A stretch of DNA of 64,000 nucleotides from Planctomycetota bacterium (GTDB lineage: Bacteria > Planctomycetota > B15-G4 > SIAN01): positions 32,001-96,000 of the forward strand of contig JANNXA010000050.1 of the NCBI GenBank assembly GCA_031409275.1. The letters run 5' to 3'. Positions 9,716 to 64,000 of the stretch are shown here, one piece after another (the first letter of the stretch is position 1; every line of letters begins with the position of its first letter). The notes under the pieces were generated by a model, which was given only the letters and a program-made list of their open reading frames with translations, ran no database searches and was not told the DNA's origin. The position numbers and the translations under genes were made by a program.

Positions 9716-11561
9716 GGGCTCCTCCGCGTGGGGTCGCCGTCGAGTCCGCGGCGACGGGGATCGGGATGGTCAGGACGAAGTGGGCGCCACGGTAGCCACC
9801 ATCGGACGCGGCGAGTGCGAGCGTCCCGCCGTGCGCCAACGCGACCCGCTGCGCCACCGCCAACCCCAGTCCGCTGCCGGTCGGCCGCGTCGTGAAGAAG
9901 GGCAGGAAGACCTGCGCTTGCTGCTCGACCGGGATGCCGGGCCCATCGTCGCGCACGTGCCAGACGATGGCGCGGTCGTTCGCCTCCAACGTCAGCTCGA
10001 CCCGGCCCCCACTCGGTTGCACCGCGATTGCATTCAGCAGCAGATTGAGCAGCGCGTGGCGCACTTGATCGCCGTCGAGCGCGAGCGGCGCCACCGTCTC
10101 GCCACCGACCAGCGAGTGCGTCACGCGGAAAGCGGCCGCGCGCTCCGAAGCGAGCAGCAGCGCCGCCTGCGCGACGGCGCGGGGCGACTGCAGCTGCCGC
10201 TCGAGCCGCGGCTCGCGACCGAGCGCCAAGGCGTCGGTGACGACGCGATCGAGGCGGCGCGCCTCGGCTCGCAAGATCGAGAGCCACTTCTCCGCGTCGG
10301 GTCCCGCCCGCGATTCGGGCGTGTCGAGCAGATCGAGCGCGCCCAGGATCGCCCCCAGCGGGTTCTTGATCTCGTGGGCGATGCCGGCCGCCAGCGCGCC
10401 AAGCTGCGCCAACCGTTGCGCGCGCTGCCGCTCCTCCTGCGCCTCGATCGCGCGCAACGCGACCGCGATGCGACCGGCGAGGCGGCGCAGGGCACGGCGC
10501 AGCACGCGCGCTTCGAGCAGCCGCGGCTCGCGCAGTTCGAGCCGCAGCCAGCCCAGTCGCACGCCCCCCACCTTCACGGCGAGCACGACCGTCCCCTCGA
10601 CGCCACCGCGACGCGGCCGCACCGTCAGCAGCTCCGCGTGGCGCACGTCGCCATCGACCGGAGCCGTCAGCGATCGCGCCAGCTCGGCGCCGAGTTCGGC
10701 GCGCGAGGTCGCCTGCGCCAGCACTTCGTCCTGCGCCTCGAAATGGGCCAGCAGCGCGCGCCGACGCCGTTCGCGCTCGCGCGCCGACGGTGAGCGCAGG
10801 AAGCGGGCGAGCGGCGCTCGCAACAAGAGCAGCGTGAGCAGCGCGAACCAGACCAGCACCAGCCGCAGCGGTGTCGCATCGACCCGTTCGAGCACGAGGA
10901 CGAGCGGGTAGGCGGCGACCAGCGCCGCAACCGCCAGCGCCGCCGCGCGACCGAACAGGGGCTTGAGTTCGAACAGTCCATGGCGCGCCACGGCCGAGCC
11001 GAGCAGCGCCACGAGCGCCACGCTGCCGATGCCGGCCAACCGCGGCAACTGCGGCAGCGGCTCGAACAATCCGAGCACATCGACGAGCGCCGCGACCACC
11101 GCGAACAACGCCGCCACCAGGAACGCACGCATCGGCTCGCGCCGTGCACGCGCGGCGCGAGCCAGCGCGACCAGCACCACCAGGAGGCCGGGGAAGAGGA
11201 GCCACGCCGCAGCATCGATCGCTCGATCGCCGATCAACGCGAGCGGCACCGCCGCGACCAGCACGATCCACCAGGTGAAGCGCGCCAGACGCAGCCGTTG
11301 CGGTCCGGCTTGCGCGATCTGCGCGGCGAGCTCGAGTCCGAGCGGCAACAGGGCGAGCGCGATGATCCAGAGCAGCTCGGATCCGACGTGCGGAGCGAAC
11401 AGGTCGTGGAAGAAGAGCGCCGCGCTCCAGACGGAAAGCGTCAGCGCGACGCGACCGAACGCGCGTGGCACTGGATGGCCGGAACGGCGCGCGGCGAGCG
11501 CGAAGAGCAGATGGCCCAGCGCCGCAACGGCGCTCGCGAGCAGTGGCAGGGCGCGTTCCAT
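9684..11561 (-). CDS. Membrane sensor histidine kinase
   Basis: Multi-TM N-terminus, H-box AHEIKNPL, N-box NLLLNA, DDGPGI, FFTT and GSGLGL. Overlaps the regulator start. Confidence 0.94.
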   Translation of the reverse strand: MERALPLLASAVAALGHLLFALAARRSGHPVPRAFGRVALTLSVWSAALFFHDLFAPHVGSELLWIIALALLPLGLELAAQIAQAGPQRLRLARFTWWIVLVAAVPLALIGDRAIDAAAWLLFPGLLVVLVALARAARARREPMRAFLVAALFAVVAALVDVLGLFEPLPQLPRLAGIGSVALVALLGSAVARHGLFELKPLFGRAAALAVAALVAAYPLVLVLERVDATPLRLVLVWFALLTLLLLRAPLARFLRSPSARERERRRRALLAHFEAQDEVLAQATSRAELGAELARSLTAPVDGDVRHAELLTVRPRRGGVEGTVVLAVKVGGVRLGWLRLELREPRLLEARVLRRALRRLAGRIAVALRAIEAQEERQRAQRLAQLGALAAGIAHEIKNPLGAILGALDLLDTPESRAGPDAEKWLSILRAEARRLDRVVTDALALGREPRLERQLQSPRAVAQAALLLASERAAAFRVTHSLVGGETVAPLALDGDQVRHALLNLLLNAIAVQPSGGRVELTLEANDRAIVWHVRDDGPGIPVEQQAQVFLPFFTTRPTGSGLGLAVAQRVALAHGGTLALAASDGGYRGAHFVLTIPIPVAADSTATPRGGAHVADAAAPPA

Positions 11562-11599
11562 CGCCGGCGAGACCTAACGCCGCTGCCGGCGCGTCAACG

Positions 11600-12307
11600 T
11601 CACGCGGCCGCCGCTTCGGCTTGCTTCAGCAGTCGATCGTTCAGTTGCCGGAGCTCTTCGCAGAGCGCCTCGTCCTTGCCGCCCACCGCGCGCAAGAAGT
11701 CGTCGAGGTCTTGAGCGCCGCGCGCCTGCAGGACCCCTTCGGCCACCTGATAGAAGGTCGCGTACTCGTGCTCGTCGAGCGGCCGCGCCAGCGTCTGCAC
11801 GATGCGGACGCGATCCTTCTCGTAGGCCTCGCGCGCGGGCTTCACCGCAGCGGTGGGGTCGAGCTGGGCCAGCGCGATCAGCGCCGCATGCCGGCGCGCA
11901 GGGTCGCGAAGGGCCGCCTCGACGACCGGGCGACCCGGCTCGAAGCGACGCCCACCGATCGCGAGCAGCAGCGACAGATGGGCTTCGAGGTCGTTTTTGA
12001 TCCGCTTCTCGTTGGCCACGGCCACCGCCAGGTCGAAGGGGCGATTGCACGCGCCGAGGATGGCGAGCGCCTGCGCCTGCGCCTTGGCATCGTCGCCAGC
12101 GACCATCTCGGCGAGCGTCTGGTCGAAGGTCGGCAGATGCTCGGGATCGACCTCGGCGAGGAAGTCGTCAAGATCTCCGAAGGGATCCTCCGCCAGCAGC
12201 GAAGCATCCCCCTGTTCGAGCTCGAAGAAGAAGTCCCGCCAACTCTGACGGCAGCGGAAGAAGAGCACTTCGAGTTCGCGCAATCGCCCGGTCGTAGACC
12301 GCTTCAT
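11600..12307 (-). CDS. Hypothetical helical protein
   Basis: ATG at 12307 (MKRSTTGRLRELE) with GC3-biased codons and normal composition. No recognised motif. Confidence 0.7.
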   Translation of the reverse strand: MKRSTTGRLRELEVLFFRCRQSWRDFFFELEQGDASLLAEDPFGDLDDFLAEVDPEHLPTFDQTLAEMVAGDDAKAQAQALAILGACNRPFDLAVAVANEKRIKNDLEAHLSLLLAIGGRRFEPGRPVVEAALRDPARRHAALIALAQLDPTAAVKPAREAYEKDRVRIVQTLARPLDEHEYATFYQVAEGVLQARGAQDLDDFLRAVGGKDEALCEELRQLNDRLLKQAEAAAA

Positions 12308-12458
12308 GGCCCCAAGCTTGAATCGAAAAGCCGGCGCGAGCACCGTCCTCCGGAGCGGCGACACGCAGCAGGCGGAACGGACGCGGAGTAGAACCACCCC
12401 CCCGGATGCCCGTCAAGTCCCGCGCCCCGCCTCCGGCACCGGATGAGAGTCGTCGCCC

Positions 12459-13514
12459 ATGAGCCGCGCCCTGACCGACCGCCCTCGCAGCCTCTTCGCG
12501 CCGACGCTCGCCGATTTCACGGCGGCGGTCGCGGCGCAGGGCGGCAAGGCGGCGCACGCGCGCGAACTGCGCCGCGGCGTGCTGCGCCACGGCGGGAGGC
12601 CGCTGGCCGCGATCGAGGTGCGCCGCGTGGCGCTGCCGCACGGGCTGATCGAGCGGCTCGACGCGCAGGCGTGGCGCGCCACCGAATCGAGCGTCGCGCT
12701 GGCGGCGCCGTCGGGCGACGGCTCGACCAAGCTCGTCCTCGCGTTGGCCGATGGCAAGAGCGTCGAGGCGGTGGTGATGCCGGCCGAGAAGGGGCACTTC
12801 GCCGTCTGCATCTCGAGCCAGGTGGGCTGCCCGGTCGGCTGCCCCTTCTGCGCCAGCGGCATCGGCGGCCTGGTGCGCCACCTCGCGGCGCACGAGATCG
12901 TCGAGCAGGTGGTCCATGCGCGCGCGATCGCCGACGTGCGGCGCATCGTGGTCATGGGGATCGGCGAGCCGCTGCTCAACTTCGACGCGCTGCTGCCGGC
13001 GCTCGACGTGCTGGTGGCGGAGGGCGGCTTCGCGGAGCCGCGCATCGTCGTCTCGTCGGTCGGCTTCCCGGAACGGGTGCGTCGCCTCGCCGCGAGCGGT
13101 CGGCGCTTCGGCCTCGCCATCTCGCTCCACTCGATCGACGACGCGCAACGCGATCAGCTGGTGCCAGCGATGCGCGGCGTGAAGGTCGCCGAGGTGATCG
13201 CGGCCGCGGCCGCGTGGGCCGACGCAACCGGCGGCCGCATCCAATTCGAGTACGTGGTGCTGCGCGGCGTGAACGACGAGATCGCCGCCTGCGATGAGCT
13301 GGTGCGACAACTCAAGGGGCTGCCGGCCTACGTGAATTTCATCGCGTGGAACGACGTGCCCGGACTGCCCTTCACGCGCCCCGAAGACGAGCGTGTCGCC
13401 GTGATGGTGCGCCGTTGCCGCGATGGCGGCCTGCTGGCCACGCGGCGTCGAACCCTGGGCGGCGACGCGACGGCGGCGTGCGGTCAGCTGCGCCGCAGCC
13501 TCGGCGCGCGCTGA
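12459..13514 (+). CDS. rlmN: RlmN/Cfr-family radical SAM RNA methyltransferase
   Basis: SQVGCPVGCPFC (CxxxCxxC), MGIGEP, ISLH and C-terminal AACGQL. Confidence 0.85.
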   Translation: MSRALTDRPRSLFAPTLADFTAAVAAQGGKAAHARELRRGVLRHGGRPLAAIEVRRVALPHGLIERLDAQAWRATESSVALAAPSGDGSTKLVLALADGKSVEAVVMPAEKGHFAVCISSQVGCPVGCPFCASGIGGLVRHLAAHEIVEQVVHARAIADVRRIVVMGIGEPLLNFDALLPALDVLVAEGGFAEPRIVVSSVGFPERVRRLAASGRRFGLAISLHSIDDAQRDQLVPAMRGVKVAEVIAAAAAWADATGGRIQFEYVVLRGVNDEIAACDELVRQLKGLPAYVNFIAWNDVPGLPFTRPEDERVAVMVRRCRDGGLLATRRRTLGGDATAACGQLRRSLGAR

Positions 13515-15822: not shown

Positions 15823-16617
15823 TCACCGCGGCACGTCGAGCGCGCGCAGCTGCTCCAACGCGACTTCGCCGTGGAGCCGCTTGCGCCAGTTCTCGGTGAG
15901 GAAGGTCCCGCCGAGGTGGCCGGCGCGATCGAAGAAGAGGATCGCCGGCCGCGCGAGGTCGCCGCCGCGATGGACGTCGGCGCCGGCATGGCGCAACCCG
16001 AACTCATCCACCAGCTTCAACTCAGGATCGGAGAGCAGCAGGAAGGTGATCCCCTCCTGCTTCGCCAACGCGGCAAGTTCGCCCGGCGAGTCCTTGGAGA
16101 CGACGACGACCGTGCCGCCTTCCGCCTCGATCGCGGCGAGAGAGAGCTGCAACACGCGCAGCTCGCGCACGCAGAAGGGTCACCAGAAGCCGCGAACGAA
16201 CGCCAGCACCACCTTCCGGCCGGCGAGGCGGCCGCTGCGCTGCTCCTCCGCGAGATCGAAGGTCGAGCCGTCGGCGGCGGTGCAAGCGATCGCGGGCAGC
16301 GAGCGGCCCGTCACGAGCTTCGCCGCGACGGCGGGCGGCAGCGCATAGGTCGCATCGCGAGTGAAGAGGAAGAAGAGGCCTGTCACTCCCGCGGCGAGCG
16401 TGAGGCAGAGGCCGGCGATGAAGCGATCGGCGCGCAGCGCGCCGGCCGGCGGCCTCAACACCGCGTGCGTGGCCACGGCGAGGCCGACCAGCTGCATCAC
16501 CCACAGCGGCAGGTCGTGCTCGCCGAAGCCTGGGTTCTTCGCCCACCAGCTGAAGTAGCCGAACGTCGCGAGCGCACAGAGCGCAACACCGAAGAGAGCG
16601 CGACCGGTCGCCTTCAT
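15823..16617 (-). CDS. Membrane-anchored AhpC/TSA-redoxin-family selenoprotein (UxxC), 264 aa with Sec at codon 146
   Basis: The two track ORFs are in frame and joined by TGG TGA CCC TTC TGC (FVRGFW-U-PFC). The fold continues on both sides (VSKD, LLSDP, ARPAILFFD), and a hairpin follows the TGA. Confidence 0.85.
16144..16164 (-). promoter_or_regulatory. Candidate bacterial SECIS hairpin
   Basis: GAGCTGC-GCGTGTT-GCAGCTC forms a perfect 7-bp stem starting 15 nt 3' of the TGA at 16180-16182, with a GU-containing loop. Confidence 0.65.
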
Positions 16618-56721: not shown

Positions 56722-57249
56722 TCAGCTCCCGCGCCGGCGTGTGAGTTCGCGTGGATCGACGAAGCAGAGCCAGCGCATCAGCATCGCGCCCAGGAGCAGG
56801 CTCGCCGCGTGGAGGACGTGGTTCAGCCACGCGCGCTCGCCCGCCAGTTGCCCGGCCATCTTCAGGCCGAGCCAGTGATAGCTCTTCTCCAGTTCCATCA
56901 CGACGCACATCAGCGCGAAGAGGAGGAGGAAGGAGAAGCGGTAGAGCGACGACTGCCACAGCCGCTGCGTCTCGCGCCGATCGCGCGTGAACAGGCGCTT
57001 GATCACGTAAAGGCCGGCGATGCTGCACGGGACCGCCAGCAGCTTGAACCACTGCACGTTCAAGTCGCCAAGCCAGGTGCCGTCCGACGGCGCGCGCACC
57101 AGGTAGCGCAGCGGCGAGTCGCCCAGTCGCTCGCTCCAGCCGGGATCGATGTCCGTCAACAGGTCGGAGGCGAAGCGGCCCGCGCCGATCAACGCCAGCG
57201 GCACGGCGACGAGGAGCGAGGCGCTCGGCGAGCCGCCCTTCGTGCTCAT
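56722..57249 (-). CDS. Hypothetical membrane protein
   Basis: About 4 hydrophobic segments. ATGA overlap with the peptidase stop. Confidence 0.75.
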   Translation of the reverse strand: MSTKGGSPSASLLVAVPLALIGAGRFASDLLTDIDPGWSERLGDSPLRYLVRAPSDGTWLGDLNVQWFKLLAVPCSIAGLYVIKRLFTRDRRETQRLWQSSLYRFSFLLLFALMCVVMELEKSYHWLGLKMAGQLAGERAWLNHVLHAASLLLGAMLMRWLCFVDPRELTRRRGS

Positions 57250-59246
57250 GGCCGCCACTTCAGCAGCTCGTCGATCGTGTCGCGCGAGACGGCGTGGTAG
57301 CTCGCGCGCGCCTTGGCGTAGATCGACTGCGCAAGCGGCTTGCCCCAGTCGCTCTTCATCAGCTCCTGGTAGAGCGGCTTCAGGAACTTGCGCCGCCCCT
57401 GCGAGGTCAGGAAGTGGTCGAGCGCGGCGAACGCCGGCTCGTAGCGGTGCGTGATGCACGGCAGCAGCCAGGCGAAGAGCACCTCCGAATTGCCGCGCTG
57501 CGAAAGCGCGAAGGCTGCATCGAGTTCGGCGAGCTGCGCGTGGGTGGCGCTGGCGGGAAGCTGACGCAGGAAGTGCTGCCACTGCTGCGTCGTGAATCCC
57601 GCGACATCGAGGGAGCGCGCCGGCGTCCCGGCGAGGAACCGCTCCATCGCGGTGGTCGCGCGGGCGAGAGCGGTCGACGTCGCGCGCGGGCAGTTCGACG
57701 GCAGGCCCGGCCCATCGACCCACGCGGGGATCTGGAGCGCGCGCTTCCACTCCGGCTGTCCGGTCAGCAGTTCGCGGTCGAGGAAGGCGAGGAAGTCGTC
57801 GGTCGTGCGGCTCGTGAAGGCATTGCCGTCGAACCACGCGCGCAGGAAGCGGTCGAACCGCTCGCGCCCCACCGTTTCCTCGATCGCCTGCAGGAAGCGG
57901 GCGCCCTTCTCGTAGGCGATGTCGGTCATGCCGTCGTCGGGGTTGCGCCCCTCGAGCGCAAGGCGCAGATGAGTGTCCTTGCGCTGCCCCGCGGCGGTCA
58001 TCTCGGCGACGCTCTTCTCCAGATCCTGCAGCCCCAGCACGGCCAGCGCTTCGTCGAACTCCTCGCCGAAGAGCGCCTCCATGATCCGGTGCTCGAAGTA
58101 GACGGTGAACCCTTCGTTCAACCAGAAGTCGTTCCAGGTGGCGTTGGTGACCAGGTTGCCCGACCAGCTGTGCGCAAGCTCATGCGCGACCAGCGACACC
58201 AGCGAGCGATCGCCCGCGAGGATGGTGGGCGTCGCAAAGGTGAGGCGCGGGTTCTCCATGCCGCCGAACGGGAAGCTCGGCGGCAGGACCAGCACGTCGT
58301 AGCGCCCGAAGCGGTACGGGCCGTAGAGCTTCTCGGCCGCACCGATCATCGAGTCGAGGTCGACGAACTCGGCGGAGGCGCGCGCAATCACCGGCCGTTC
58401 GGCGTAGACGCCGCAGTTGCGGCCGAGCGACGCGAAGGCGAGATCGCCCACCGCGAGCGCCATCAGGTAGCTCGGGATCGGCTGCGGCATGTCGAACTCG
58501 TAGACCCCGTCGGCACGCGCGACCTGCGGATTCGACGCCGACATCAGCGCCAGCAGCGGCGGTCCGGGCGGCGCCTTCAACGCGATGCGCGCGGAGTAGG
58601 TCATTCGCACCGCCGGCGAGTCCTGGCAGGGAATCCAGGTGCGCGCGAGGATCGCCTGCGACTGCGTGAAGAGGAACGGCGACTTGCCGCCCGCCGTCTG
58701 TTCCGGCGCGAGCCACTGCACGGCGGCCGCGGCCGGGCTCGTCGCGTAGTCGATGTGGACCCACAGCACTTCGGCGCCGCCGCCAGCAACGGCAACAGCC
58801 ACCGGCGGGAGGTCGAGCGTGAGCGCGGCGCCGAAGTCGGGCTGCGCCGGACTCAAGGTGAAACGAGCCGGTTGCGCTGCCGCGAGGCCGCCCGCATTCG
58901 GCGCGGCGCGCGACGTCGTGACGCGCGCAATGGAGAGGTCACGCGTGTCGAGCACGAGTTGCGTGGCGCCGGGCTGCCGCGCCACCTCGAGGCTCGCGCG
59001 ACCCGCCAGCGTCTTCGTGGCGAAATCGACCGCGAGGTCGAGCTCGAGCCGCTGTACCCGCGCCTCCTCCGGTCGCGAAAAGGAGTGGCTGTCGCGCGCC
59101 ATGGATCGCTCTCCCACGTGGCCGGAAGTCGCCGATGCCGCGGTCGCGCCACCCGCCGCCGCTCTCGGCTCATCGAGCGCGCAGCCCAGCGCCGCAAACC
59201 CCAAGAGTGCCGCGCATCCGGTTCGTCGTCGCACGATCGTCCTCAC
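57246..59246 (-). CDS. M1-family zinc aminopeptidase (LTA4 hydrolase-like), probable lipoprotein
   Basis: GGMEN, HELAH-x18-E (WLNEG) and YEKG, with lipobox-like ALGC. GTG 59246 chosen; ATG 59102 is an alternative. Confidence 0.93.
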   Translation of the reverse strand: MRTIVRRRTGCAALLGFAALGCALDEPRAAAGGATAASATSGHVGERSMARDSHSFSRPEEARVQRLELDLAVDFATKTLAGRASLEVARQPGATQLVLDTRDLSIARVTTSRAAPNAGGLAAAQPARFTLSPAQPDFGAALTLDLPPVAVAVAGGGAEVLWVHIDYATSPAAAAVQWLAPEQTAGGKSPFLFTQSQAILARTWIPCQDSPAVRMTYSARIALKAPPGPPLLALMSASNPQVARADGVYEFDMPQPIPSYLMALAVGDLAFASLGRNCGVYAERPVIARASAEFVDLDSMIGAAEKLYGPYRFGRYDVLVLPPSFPFGGMENPRLTFATPTILAGDRSLVSLVAHELAHSWSGNLVTNATWNDFWLNEGFTVYFEHRIMEALFGEEFDEALAVLGLQDLEKSVAEMTAAGQRKDTHLRLALEGRNPDDGMTDIAYEKGARFLQAIEETVGRERFDRFLRAWFDGNAFTSRTTDDFLAFLDRELLTGQPEWKRALQIPAWVDGPGLPSNCPRATSTALARATTAMERFLAGTPARSLDVAGFTTQQWQHFLRQLPASATHAQLAELDAAFALSQRGNSEVLFAWLLPCITHRYEPAFAALDHFLTSQGRRKFLKPLYQELMKSDWGKPLAQSIYAKARASYHAVSRDTIDELLKWRP

Positions 59247-59346
59247 CGTCCCGAAAGCAGCTCGCCGCGAAACGGCGCAGGATGCCGGCGCGGCCGAGCG
59301 GGAGGAAGACCGGAGGAGCACCCGCAGGCGACCGCGCTCGAAAGCG

Positions 59347-59384
59347 ACGGCGGCGCCCGGCCCGCTCGGGCCGAACGCCGCCGT
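59347..59384 (-). terminator. Strong hairpin downstream of the HEAT gene, possible terminator
   Basis: ACGGCGGCGTTCGGCCC-GAGC-GGGCCGGGCGCCGCCGT (17 bp, 2 G-U) about 30 nt after the stop. The U-tail is weak. Confidence 0.45.
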
Positions 59385-59413
59385 TTCAAGAGCTCGATCG
59401 TCGGACGGTTGGG

Positions 59414-61510
59414 CTACTGCAAGAGCACGAAGTCGAGCGCCGCCGTGCGCAGGCGGTACTGGCTGTCGATCGCATAACCCGCCGACCAGGTCGGCGCGGC
59501 GCTCTCGCCGATGCGAGCGAGCGAGTCGACCGCCTGCCAACGAGTCGCGCGCCCCGTCGACGCGTCGTCGAGCAGCGCCACCAGTTCACCCGCGCTCCGT
59601 CGGCACTCGAACATGCCGAGCGCTTCGGCCAGCACCGCAGCGCTGGCATCGCTGGTCTCCCCTTCGAGGCGCGTCGCCAACCGCTCCATCGTTTCGAGCG
59701 AGCCCAGCCGCGCCAGCGCCCGCGCCGACGCGACCCGCAGTTCCGGCGAACTCGAATCGTCGTCGAGGCGCTCCGCGAGCGGCCGCCTGGCCATGGCCGC
59801 GACACCACCACCCGCCAACCCGAGCGCTTCGGCCCAGTAGGGCGCGCTCGACGTCGCCGCGTCGATCTCGAGGCGTCGCAGCAGTTCGGGCACCGCCGCG
59901 CGATCGCGCGCCAGACCCAACGCCAGACCCAGCGCCGCATCGGTCGAGGCGTTGCGCGAGATCGTCAACGCTTCGCGCAGCGTGGCGCACGCCTGGAAGT
60001 GACGATCCGAATCGCCCGCCTCGCCGCGCACGCCAATCCCGAGCGCGAGTGCGGCGAACGGCCGGTCGTAGGAGAGGCGCGGCGCGAACACGCGGTCGCC
60101 GAGGAAGTGCGCCACCGCGTCCGCAGCCGCTGCCGCCTCGGGATACGCCGCCGACGTCTCGAGCAGACGGCCAAGCGCCATGAAGGAGAACGAGCGCACG
60201 TCGGGCGCCCCGCGTCCGTCGCAGTTCTGCTGGAGGACCGAAACGAGTTCACCATCGCTGGCGCGGCCGAGCGCGCCGAGCGCGATGACGGCCGCCGTGC
60301 GCACCGCTTCGACCCCGTCGTCCGCCCCCGCGAGATGGACCAGCATCGGAAGCGCCGCGCGAGCGAGCGCCGGAGCGACGCGCGACATCGCGATCGCCGA
60401 CTGCGCGCGCACGAAATCGGTGGCGCGTGCATCGGCGAGCGTCGCCAGGAGCTTCGAGGCGACGGCTGGATTTTCGGGAGCAGCGTGCGCTGCGCCGAGC
60501 AGCGCCGCGCCGGTGATGTGCTCGCAATCGCAGGAGTCGGCCACCGCGAGCAGCGCCGCGGCACTCTCCGTCCCTTTCGCCAGTCCGAGCGCAAGCGCCG
60601 CGAGCTGGCGGCGACTGCAATCGATCGGACCGCCGGCGTCGACCAGAGCGCGCCCTTCGCGCGAGTCCGCCGCGATCGCCGCGAGCTTCGCGCGCGACTC
60701 GCCATCGCCGCAGAGGCCAAGCGCCACCAGCGCCGCGTCGCGCATGACGAGCCGATCGTCGTCGAGCGCGCGCACGACGAGCGGCGCCACCATCGCGCCG
60801 TCCCGCGCTCCCGCCACTCGCGCCAGCGCGAGCAGGGCAGCGCTCGCCACCTGCGGATCCTCATCGTGCAGCCGTTGCGCCAACCGCGGCCACAGCGTCG
60901 ATCGGAGGAACAGCGGATCGAGCGCTGCGACGTCGACGCGATCGGGGGTCTGGCCCGGCTCCGGCGAGGGCCAGAACGCGCCGCCACCGCTCCAGGCGAT
61001 GCCGTTCACGCGCCACCACTCTTCCCAACCGCCGATCGACTCGTCGTGCGCGCGGCGCGTGGCCGGGCCGCTGGCACGGGGCGCGCCGCCGGGCGGCGGC
61101 GGAGTGGCCGGTTTCGGATCGGCGCGCTTGGTCACGGGGCGCAACGCGGCCGGCGCCGGCTTTGGCGTCGCGGCCGGCGTGCTGTCGCGCTGGGCCGGTC
61201 CGTCCGACTTGGTCGACGGGCGCCGCGGGGTGGACGGGTGTTCGTGACCGTCCTTCGGGGTCGAGGTGCTGGGGCGGTCCTTGTCCGCTTCCGGCTTCTT
61301 CGTCTTGTCGCCGACGCCCTTGGTGCCTTTGCCGGACCCACCGGGTCCTTTGTGTCCCATCCCCGGTCAGAAACCCGGCGGCTCCGGCTGCTCGACGCGG
61401 CGATCGCCGGCGGGGTCGCCCGCCTGCGCCGATGCGGTGGCGACGAGGAGCGCACTGCCAGCTAGCAGCGCTCGGGTCAGGAGGAAGGGGGGATGCGATC
61501 GACGAGACAT
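59414..61510 (-). CDS. Exported HEAT-repeat protein with in-frame TGA at codon 48 (candidate selenoprotein, 698 aa)
   Basis: GGAGGT RBS, ATG 61510 and signal peptide MSRRSHPPFLLTRALLAGSALLVATASA are in frame with ORF 59414-61360 across TTC TGA CCG (61367-69). A WEEWW motif and many HEAT repeats follow. Confidence 0.75.
61334..61348 (-). promoter_or_regulatory. Candidate SECIS hairpin
   Basis: GGACCC-GGT-GGGTCC begins 18 nt 3' of the TGA. Confidence 0.45.
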
Positions 61511-61721
61511 GGAGCACCTCCGATTCGCAATGGGGACGACCTACGGCAGATCGGGTGGACGATCCGTGCCAAGGAAATGGCGTACCGCGGCGTCGCACTC
61601 GGGGCCGACCGCTCGAGCATCGACCCGAACGGTCACGCCGTGGTAACCGATCGAGCCCGCGCGCCGAGGAAGCCGCGATTCGCGCGGCAAACCGTGACAA
61701 GTCGCGTCCGGCCGCTCGCCG

Positions 61722-62657
61722 CTAATCCGCCATCAGCAACAGCGGCACGCCTGCTGTCGCGAGCAACGTCCCGAACCACGCGATCCAGCGATAGCGCTCA
61801 TGCAGGATCCCGACGGCCATCGGCAGCAGGAAGAGCGGTGTGGTCGACAAGAGGCACAGCGCGACGCTGGCGTCGAGATTCGCGTAGGCCGCCTGCTGCA
61901 AGAAGATGCCGAGGAAGGTCGCGAGGAAGACGGCGACGAGCTCCCTGCGCATCTGCGGCAGCATGCGCAGCGGCGCGAAGTCGATGGCGCCCCGTCGCAT
62001 CGCCAGCGTCGCCAGGAACGTCCCGACCGCCGCGCCGCTCATTCGCAATGTCGAGCCGGGCAGCACCCCGACCGCGCTGATCGCATGGTGCGTCATCACG
62101 CCGGCGGTCGCATTGCACAGCGACGACACGACGCCGCACAGCGTCCCGCTGATGCGCAGCCGTCGCGCAGCGGCGTCGGCGACCGCGTCGCTCGCCCCGG
62201 TCGTCTCACGCTTCGCTCGCCCGAAGATCACCAGCAGCACGCCGCCAAGCACCATCGCGATGCCGCCAAGGTCGCGCATGCCCAGCGATTCGCTGCCGAG
62301 CGCGAAGCCGAGCGCCGCCGACCAGATCGGCGAAAGCTGGTTCAACGCGATCGCCGGCTGCGCGCCGAGTCGCTTCACCGCCTCGAAGAGGAAGACGTCT
62401 CCGACCGCCAGACCGAGTGCGCCGGACAGCAGCAGCACGCCGCCGTCGCGGGTCGCGAGTGACCGCCACGCGACGCCACCGTCGATCAGCAACGTCGACG
62501 TCCAGAACAACAGCAACGCGATGGCGATGCGAAACGCGTTCATCGCGCGCGGACCGTGGCGCACGATCGCCGCCTTGAAGAGGACGGTCGAGATCGCCCA
62601 CGACGCGGACGCGGCGAGCGCGGCGCTACCGCCGGCGACCGCTGGCGACCACGTCAC
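61722..62657 (-). CDS. DMT/EamA-family transporter
   Basis: About 10 TM segments in two repeats (SWA...K, GLAVGD, SPIW, TTPLF...HER). Confidence 0.9.
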   Translation of the reverse strand: MTWSPAVAGGSAALAASASWAISTVLFKAAIVRHGPRAMNAFRIAIALLLFWTSTLLIDGGVAWRSLATRDGGVLLLSGALGLAVGDVFLFEAVKRLGAQPAIALNQLSPIWSAALGFALGSESLGMRDLGGIAMVLGGVLLVIFGRAKRETTGASDAVADAAARRLRISGTLCGVVSSLCNATAGVMTHHAISAVGVLPGSTLRMSGAAVGTFLATLAMRRGAIDFAPLRMLPQMRRELVAVFLATFLGIFLQQAAYANLDASVALCLLSTTPLFLLPMAVGILHERYRWIAWFGTLLATAGVPLLLMAD

Positions 62658-64000
62658 TTCCCCTCGTCTTTCTTCGGCGCCAGATCGACGCCGTCGTCAC
62701 CCACGTAGCCGAGCCGCTTCAAATCGGCGAGCAGCTTGCCGTCGATCGCTTTCAACTCCTGCTCGAAGCGTGCCTCGAAGAGAGGAATCTGGCGCAGGGC
62801 CGACGCGCGCTTCTGCTTCCACTCGGGATCGTCGTGCGTCGGCACCGACCGGATCGGCCGCGCTTCCAGGAGCGCGGGCGCGAGCACCTGGCGCAGCGGT
62901 CGGCCGGCGCCGTCGTGCGCATAGGGCAGACCCGCGCGCACCAGCAGTGTCGGCAGCACATCTTCGACACGGCCGACGCTCTTCACGTCGGCGCGGGTGG
63001 CGTCCAGCGCAAGCGACTGCTTGCGAAAGCTCGGCCCAAGCGCGAGGAAGACGCCGGGCGGCGCATCCTGATGGTTGCCCGAATCGGCGCGGCCGGTGCG
63101 ATCGTCGGGAAACGGCTCGTTGCGCGCGACCGCATGGAAGCCGTGGTCGGACAGCAGGAGGAAGTCGGCGTCCGGCGCGCGGCGACGCAGCTCGCCGACG
63201 GTGTCATCGACGAAACGGTAGGCCTCGCGGATCATCGAGCCGAAGCGCGCGACGTCCGCTTCGCTCGGGCGATCTTCGAAGACGGTCGGCTCGAAGTAGC
63301 GCCAGAACATGTGAGAGGCGACGTCAGCGCTTCCCAGATAGAGGAGCAGCGCGTCGGCGCGCTCCTTCGCCTCGAGCACGTCGAAGGCCGCGGCGGCGAA
63401 GAGCAGATCCGCGTAGTGGGCCGTGCGCAGCACCGAATAGAGCTGCGAGGGCAGCTTTCGCGCGACCGGCGGTGGCGCTCCGAAGCGCGCGGTGAACGGG
63501 TCGTTCCCCGCCTCGATGGAATCGCCAAGCTGCACGGCGTGCGCGTCCATCGTGTCGGCCCGTTCCGGCGGCCAGACCTGGTTCTGCACGCCTTTCAGGT
63601 AGCTGCCTTTCCAGATCGTGACACCTTCGGAGATGTCAGCCTGCGCACGCGTCGACGTCTGCGCGACCATCCCGCCCTTGATCGGCTCGACCGGATAGGT
63701 GCACCACCAGCCGATCACCTCGGTCGACAGTCCCGCTTCGTCGTAGAGGTTCCACAGCGCCTTGCTCTGGCGATGCATGCTGAGGAAGAGGTGCGGCTGC
63801 TGGTCGGCGCCCTTGTAGGCGAAGCCCTTGATGCCGTGGTCGGCGGGGAGCTTGCCCGTCGCGACTGTCGTCCAGATCACCGGCGACAGCGTGACGTCGA
63901 GCGTGGCGAGTTCACCGGCGAACCCCTCGTGCGCCAGCGCGGCGAGATTGGGCAGCGCGCCCTCGGCCATGAAGCGCAGCAGCAGGTTCCATTCGAGTCC
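62654..64000 (-). CDS. Alkaline phosphatase/phosphodiesterase superfamily protein, 5' truncated by the window edge
   Basis: LPNL, SPVIWTTVATG, D..SH.FW, LSDHGF and LKRLGYV. The frame is open to 64000. Confidence 0.88.
   Translation of the reverse strand, partial: GLEWNLLLRFMAEGALPNLAALAHEGFAGELATLDVTLSPVIWTTVATGKLPADHGIKGFAYKGADQQPHLFLSMHRQSKALWNLYDEAGLSTEVIGWWCTYPVEPIKGGMVAQTSTRAQADISEGVTIWKGSYLKGVQNQVWPPERADTMDAHAVQLGDSIEAGNDPFTARFGAPPPVARKLPSQLYSVLRTAHYADLLFAAAAFDVLEAKERADALLLYLGSADVASHMFWRYFEPTVFEDRPSEADVARFGSMIREAYRFVDDTVGELRRRAPDADFLLLSDHGFHAVARNEPFPDDRTGRADSGNHQDAPPGVFLALGPSFRKQSLALDATRADVKSVGRVEDVLPTLLVRAGLPYAHDGAGRPLRQVLAPALLEARPIRSVPTHDDPEWKQKRASALRQIPLFEARFEQELKAIDGKLLADLKRLGYVGDDGVDLAPKKDEGK

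Follow-up and report, generated by a model that had tools for sequence, protein, structure and literature searches.

A recurring candidate selenoprotein type among HEAT-repeat proteins predicted to be exported in Planctomycetota

Described systems and how the locus compares

In the bacterial SECIS model given in the available part of a 2026 review, a hairpin follows the UGA by 16-37 nt, with G in the first two loop positions and an MFE of -7.5 or lower (PMC13188914). The gene described here lies in a window of 64,000 nucleotides of planctomycete DNA, which is the whole stretch analysed. It is similar to genes of the SelB/SECIS-dependent bacterial selenoproteins in that it has an in-frame UGA, a hairpin conforming to this model, a full set of sel genes in its genome and homologs with Cys. 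It differs from the known ones in that neither a redox motif nor an enzyme fold is present, and selenocysteine (Sec) would stand on an arm that is predicted to be disordered, at a position that shifts among members. Unlike the Trx-fold selenoproteins, the candidate has the context F-U-P-G-M without UxxC or CxxU, and its Pfam matches are to HEAT families only. In the accessible text of the same review, Sec is proposed as a metal ligand in SaoB, SaoC, the UXX-star families and MbdU (PMC13188914). These resemble the candidate in having Sec outside the thioredoxin fold as a proposed ligand for a metal or an unknown substrate, although they are ABC-transport or small metal-binding proteins, and no model of NCBIfam 20.0 matches the read-through protein at E <= 0.01.

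The PBS-lyase-type HEAT proteins (PF13646; CpcE, NblB, DOHH, YibA and alphaRep) share with the candidate a HEAT_2 match over the cut-off (59.5 bits vs 27.7) and a solenoid, which is predicted in the candidate. On the other hand, these proteins differ from the candidate, which is predicted to be exported, has a G/P arm and a WxxWW anchor, and ends in a C-terminal motif that is conserved in its family. Assignment as a CpcE/NblB bilin lyase was rejected, as the candidate has no NCBIfam match and its relatives score no higher than 40 bits where 300-330 would be required. Structural matches to the predicted model include alphaRep (Z 20.1, rmsd 5.8, 245 aligned) and YibA (Z 16.9, rmsd 7.1, 269 aligned). 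The best natural match is proteasome Rpn2 (8amz_N; Z 18.1, rmsd 5.2, 335 aligned, model residues 139-670), although identity to its PC-repeat region is 18%, and helical repeats score high by their common arrangement, so that this match is a lead only. No solved structure of a natural family member was found.

N-terminal His contributes to metal sites such as the His1-Cys2 hook of NiSOD and the His-brace copper sites. The family is similar to these in that its mature start is usually His-Gly-Gly, with H-C or H-U in some members, although the candidate itself lacks an N-terminal His.

The recoding mechanism is known, and an exported HEAT selenoprotein family appears uncatalogued. Table 1 of the 2026 review, with 119 families, contains no HEAT family, and the terms HEAT, repeat and Planctomyc are absent from its available text (PMC13188914). 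HEAT is not mentioned in the accessible portions of PMC13326102 or PMC13745706, a scope that perhaps leaves out the BSepDB family list, and an exported HEAT selenoprotein family was not found in those of PMC9402790 or PMC4807772. Literature searches among papers open without subscription found none on a bacterial HEAT selenoprotein. The usual selenoprotein searches need a Sec/Cys pair in a conserved column or a redox motif, and this type of family would escape them because it has neither.

The gene, its in-frame TGA and the hairpin behind it

The read-through CDS lies on the minus strand (59414..61510) and encodes 698 aa in an intact frame with a single TGA at codon 48. The start ATG at 61510 is preceded by the Shine-Dalgarno sequence GGAGGT (61516..61521, minus strand), and 650 open codons follow the TGA down to the stop at 59414. 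Duplex energy with what we take to be the anti-SD motif is -14.7 kcal/mol at Met1 vs -4.5 kcal/mol at Met51. Codons 1-28 (61427..61510, minus strand) form a predicted signal peptide ending in ATASA-Q, in which the n, h and c regions and the AxA site are visible by eye and in the hydropathy profile; judged from this leader, the protein is quite probably exported and cut at ASA-Q. The TGA (61367..61369, minus strand) is in the context EQPEPPGF*PGMGHKGPGG and corresponds to mature residue 20. It belongs to a Pro/Gly/Lys/Thr-rich arm (61028..61426, minus strand) that is predicted to be disordered: AlphaFold puts the Sec position in low-confidence coil, with pLDDT below 50 for almost the whole of mature residues 1-131. 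The arm is followed by the family anchor WEEWW (61013..61027, minus strand), a short helix according to family comparison and predicted structure, and by a HEAT-repeat α-solenoid of mature residues 171-640 (59507..60916, minus strand; pLDDT mostly above 90). The upstream GGAGGT, ATG and ATASA-Q leader, the lone TGA, the hairpin starting 18 nt 3' of it and the 650 codons, on all of which the original prediction was built, were confirmed.

Gene callers start a truncated 648-aa product at Met51 (61358..61360, minus strand), which is inside a recurring U/C-P-G-M motif, and the 67% identical ortholog P0003, a protein record rather than DNA, is called from the equivalent Met. This choice would suit a true stop, whether the gene is a nonsense pseudogene or encodes an exported peptide of 47 aa and, coupled to it, a HEAT protein that begins at Met51 and stays in the cytoplasm. 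The weak SD at Met51 argues against such a stop, which is very unlikely also in view of the hairpins and the family described below; according to the more favoured reading, codon 48 is very probably recoded as Sec by SelB and tRNA-Sec.

Contigs of runs X1 and X2, which belong to one study and are possibly the source of the window DNA, show 0 differences from the window over 2501 nt. Run X7, which belongs to a different study and habitat, has a contig from a relative of ~95% identity with 19 differences in 355 nt and no gaps; in this single contig of depth 2.8, none of the 18 differences listed among the 19 falls at the TGA or in the hairpin, and 3 of the 4 upstream of the TGA are synonymous. 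No variant such as TGG, CGA or TGC is present at the site in the contigs of X1, X2 and X7; among the contigs listed for runs X3-X6, none bridges the TGA. An assembly error is largely rejected on the occurrence of TGA in three runs from two studies. Reading of TGA as Trp or Gly under an altered code is largely rejected as well, since TGA is the last codon of 2522 long genes that are followed by non-coding sequence, and the homolog motif has Cys, not Trp or Gly; the chance that either of these explanations holds is negligible.

The genome of the candidate (G000; 5.6 Mb, 69% GC, 93% complete) encodes selA, full-length selB, tRNA-Sec (selC) and a TGA-bearing selD, all above curated cut-offs; the original prediction had proposed a search for just these four genes. 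A coding-model scan of this genome gives 23 TGA sites with redox-type motifs, of which one was removed by eye to leave 22 positives. Proteins with UxxC are numerous, including many exported Trx-fold selenoproteins.

The hairpin behind the candidate TGA, GGACCC-GGU-GGGUCC (61334..61348, minus strand), has its loop at +25 and involves five non-preferred codons. With a 6-bp stem, a 3-nt loop starting with GG, 24 nt of spacing and -9.1 kcal/mol, it falls inside all four limits of the model in the available part of PMC13188914. The fold of the 80-nt region is not more stable than that of shuffled sequences (z = -0.56), which is compatible with a true stop, and the hairpin stands out only against the SECIS geometry of its own genome. 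In the positives of this genome, hairpin loops are located at about +20 to +32 and begin with G-G or G-T; the SelD hairpin, AAGGACCTG-GTT-CAGGTCCTT, is nearly identical in sequence to that of the candidate.

A strict hairpin rule was set at 6 or more Watson-Crick pairs, dG <= -8.5, and a loop of 3-5 nt with GG or GT located at +19..+33; because it was fixed after both the positives and the candidate had been seen, it is blind for neither. The candidate passes this rule, and so do 16 of the 22 motif-defined selenoprotein genes of the genome. Background passes amount to 28/2522 true TGA stops, 77/7332 random sense codons and 35/1767 codons in the G/P arms of homologs. The peptide sequence itself promotes pairing to some extent: among 5000 synonymous recodings of the candidate peptide, 444 pass the strict rule and 1418 a loose one. 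A version of the rule with the GT loop is passed by 14/22 positives vs 0/5000 such recodings.

TGA, Cys and His forms across the family

Named homologs of the candidate are from Planctomycetota, and the family is large and paralogous. Matches are found in 41/42 genomes of the order and, at E <= 1e-45 with three candidates scored per genome, in 70/401 genomes of the phylum. The search of 7 genus- or family-level genomes yielded no close ortholog, the best identity being 36%, and a single-protein scan of the genome contigs gave no match. The usual build consists of a leader, a His-Gly-Gly start, a Gly/Pro arm, the WxxWW anchor, the HEAT core and the conserved C-terminal motif. In some members the short N-terminus is replaced by a VIT-vWA module (G000:C28 ~56800-60400(-), P0016, P0084 and P0115) or by an unnamed Cys domain in which an RC(A)LA motif is conserved (G000:C10 ~10750-13000(-), P0099, P0109, P0153, L181, L182 and L184), ahead of the same HEAT core. 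This fused Cys domain has no Pfam entry, and its Atlas look-alikes score below 0.9 and belong to unnamed clusters in Myxococcota and Bacteroidota; an Atlas search with P0072 returned HEAT clusters only. Across 12 family loci there is no shared or metal-related gene neighbourhood. The candidate is flanked on the minus strand (window 57246-59288 and 61722-63970) by genes for an M1 aminopeptidase (LTA4H-like), an EamA transporter and a type I phosphodiesterase, and none of these neighbours was seen next to the 12 other family loci that were inspected.

The DNA of 206 distinct family genes, each with the anchor and an open core, was read, and a hydrophobic leader is present in 194 of them. The frame is open from leader to core in 187; another 12, which are fusions or lie at contig ends, lack a leader within 175 residues. 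In the remaining 7 the arm is interrupted by TGA, and in no gene is it interrupted by TAG or TAA. The TGA arms are PGF-U-PGMG in our candidate, PDH-U-PPAD in L051, ADS-U-PPEM in L050, VFH-U-SSPS in L037, SGQ-U-PGMG in L156, APQ-U-PGML in L237 and AEG-U-GNY in L162. Of the nonsense codons that can arise in such arms by a single step, about 30% would be TGA, so that the chance of TGA every time is p ~2e-4 for 7/7 or ~2e-3 for five separate tree positions, which argues against a true stop. So does the distribution of hairpins, found behind TGA and not behind Cys codons. A hairpin with a G-G or G-U loop at +19..+25 is present in 6 of the 7 TGA genes, in differing sequences, and 5 of the 7 pass the strict rule; in L050 an internal loop interrupts the GGU-loop hairpin, which therefore fails, and L162 has a weak hairpin only. 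None of the 8 Cys-type homologs passes, the best having -7.9 with a 7-nt loop and the next -6.1. In L051 the product called after the TGA lacks the conserved WxxWW anchor, and the frame remains intact among members at 35% identity, both of which again speak against termination. Frameshifted members do exist, as a true stop might lead one to expect (L119, G012:C175, and L123, G009:C14), and their arms are intact and of the His type.

Among the genomes with a TGA member, selA and tRNA-Sec are found in G010, G020 and G027 and selA alone in G420; L050 and L051 are on metagenome contigs. Matches to TIGR00475 occur in 40 of the 42 genomes of the order, many spanning no more than the initial ~350 positions; since such partial matches may not be SelB, direct checks were made for selA and tRNA-Sec. 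Several of these genomes have two or three TIGR00475 matches, and two copies of selA are present in G020.

In a FastTree tree of 97 core sequences, comprising all Sec and Cys forms, the named proteins and 45 others picked at random, the TGA genes are at five places; a 150-sequence tree agrees for the six then known. Losses could account for part of this scattered pattern. In the candidate's clade (support 0.90), TGA is present in 3/3 members read from DNA, and all five database calls (P0003, P0004, P0005, P0044 and P0046) are without a leader, because of which the proteins of this clade would be mis-located as cytoplasmic. P0025, P0027 and P0032, sisters of L237, are likewise called from just before the anchor with no leader and are possibly a second clade of hidden Sec members. 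The Sec position varies from about mature residue 2 to 41, and 103/107 alignment rows have a gap there. No TGA member was found in ~55 further family genes, mostly from other orders of the phylum (60 rows, a few of them duplicated or frameshifted). A DNA pattern for Q-U-P-G-M is found at 25 places in 24/401 genomes, and the sole family member among them is the known L156 gene.

Counterparts with Cys are found in the same arm. L156 (SGQ-U-P) is sister to L153 (SSQ-C-P) with support 0.94, H-U-PP of L051 is paired with H-C-PP of L155, and U-P-G-M of our candidate, L156 and L237 is paired with C-P-G-M of P0017. Other Cys arms are C-L-G-M in P0015, C-P-A-M in L036 and H-C-x-x-Y in L187 and L188, and L212 has C-G-G-N-Y in place of the family H-G-G-N-Y. 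These are matches at the level of motifs (U-P-G-M/C-P-G-M and Q-U-P/Q-C-P), and yet the candidate has no alignment column with Cys. Of the comparison with homologs suggested in the original prediction, therefore, TGA with a hairpin, or Cys, in the same arm was borne out and a conserved alignment column was not. That prediction had named TGG, CGA or TGC in the reads, homologs with a non-Cys residue and never TGA, and a genome lacking Sec machinery as outcomes against Sec; none of the three was found, the first being judged on contigs, which supports the Sec reading.

A His motif starts 196 of the 237 family N-termini that could be classified among 270 distinct ones (33 could not), and the mature start of the candidate is Gln. 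Cys or Sec is present in 22/41 members without the His start vs 12/196 with it, in counts based on automatic labels that err both ways and on kin that are not independent. Most members have neither Cys nor Sec, and neither is found in the nearest sisters of the candidate, P0006, P0045 and P0048/L022. His53 of the candidate is not kept in P0003, and the Met at +3 is missing in L051, L037 and L162.

Collectively, a small recurring selenoprotein type without an enzyme fold or redox motif is very likely present in several planctomycetes. The original prediction of an atypical selenoprotein type thus holds more widely than it had claimed, as a family trait at five places in the tree.

Possible roles of the arm residue and other TGA sites of the genome

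The hairpin behind the UGA would help SelB and tRNA-Sec to insert Sec at codon 48, and the 698-residue product would be exported with its leader cleaved at ASA-Q. The mature chain would then carry Sec at residue 20 on a long, floppy N-terminal tether. Here Sec would replace the N-terminal His typical of the family, or the Cys found in some members, as a ligand for a soft metal, for instance Cu(I). The Met at the third position after it (U-P-G-M) would often take part in metal binding, and the HEAT solenoid would dock a partner protein. The N-terminal slot is read as a metal-ligand slot because most members have His, and Cys or Sec occurs chiefly in members that lack it, in many cases with Met at +3. 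The part of this reading in which Sec stands in for N-terminal His or Cys and binds a soft metal has, in our estimate, a nearly even chance. The wider proposal, made tentatively, is of a non-enzymatic exported scaffold with an interchangeable His, Cys or Sec ligand on its arm, in which Sec may have been gained about five times, each time with its own SECIS, and of a putative metal carrier. If true, metal for planctomycete envelope proteins would be carried on a tether, and a single natural scaffold would for the first time be seen with the series His, Cys and Sec.

The arm selenol might instead be a redox or covalent handle that swings onto Cys298 and Cys329 (60524..60619, minus strand) or onto a client held by the solenoid, the Se-S bonds being recycled by the exported Trx-fold selenoproteins. 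Known selenoproteins are mostly redox proteins in the available part of PMC13188914, and the many UxxC proteins of the genome fit this explanation too. The two core Cys, a possible disulfide or Sec partner, are confined to the Sec clade and its sister pair of the His type (8/107 aligned proteins), which can be read in the same direction. However, P0006 and P0045, which form this pair, have both Cys without a Sec or Cys arm, and for this reason a structural disulfide is favoured for the two residues. There is also no UxxC or CxxU motif, and His, the usual N-terminal residue, is not capable of thiol redox chemistry, so that the redox explanation, the main rival of the metal-ligand reading, is doubtful. 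Three arm Cys in P0013, P0015 and P0017 are in its favour; they are arranged as C-x4-C-x6/7-C followed by Met-Asp-Asp, and the start of the P0013 arm resembles that of the Sec member L050.

Sec might also be inserted with little chemical role, by drift from Cys to Sec in selenoprotein-rich genomes or as a selenium-dependent switch of export. The position is variable and unaligned, the five occurrences are scattered, many members have neither Cys nor Sec, and a UGA directly behind the leader couples full-length synthesis to the supply of Sec. On the other hand, every occurrence would need its own hairpin made from unusual codons, and U-P-G-M is seen three times in distant branches. Changes in the X7 relative are mostly synonymous in codons 7-77 (4 synonymous, 1 non-synonymous) and mostly non-synonymous in codons 78-110 (3 and 9, respectively), which is likewise unfavourable to drift. 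A role of this minor kind is accordingly unlikely for the arm residue. Gating of export by selenium, as raised in the original prediction, is likely as a side effect and not as the purpose, because Cys homologs exist and a close re-start Met follows the TGA in just 4/7 members (our candidate, L050, L156 and L237; none is close in the other 3).

With Sec as a possible ligand or otherwise, its probable repeated appearance on an arm predicted to be unstructured bears on the origin of new selenoproteins and of in-gene SECIS, and the versions with His, Cys and Sec offer a ready comparison for what selenium adds.

Other TGA sites were seen in the same genome. The window itself encodes a membrane-anchored AhpC/TSA-like selenoprotein (15826-16617, minus strand; TGA 16182-16180; FVRGFW-U-PFCVREL) with a SECIS-like hairpin whose loop is at +24. 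Further sites with a TGA and a hairpin, and with in-frame coding sequence behind, are at C23:25248(-) (ESC-U-GSG), C43:63697(+) (GCV-U-NNG), C14:123038(-) (KGG-U-GGGRC), C6:2306(-) (GVG-U-SGG, by the loose rule only) and C40:182040(-) (GSR-U-TAR, doubtful). Two long FG-GAP-like proteins at G000:C14:295797(-) and C34:64177(-) have an in-frame TGA (DL-U-SFWW and DT-U-STYW) with strict hairpins and ~350-530 coding codons after it, and are paralogous selenoprotein candidates without a redox motif.
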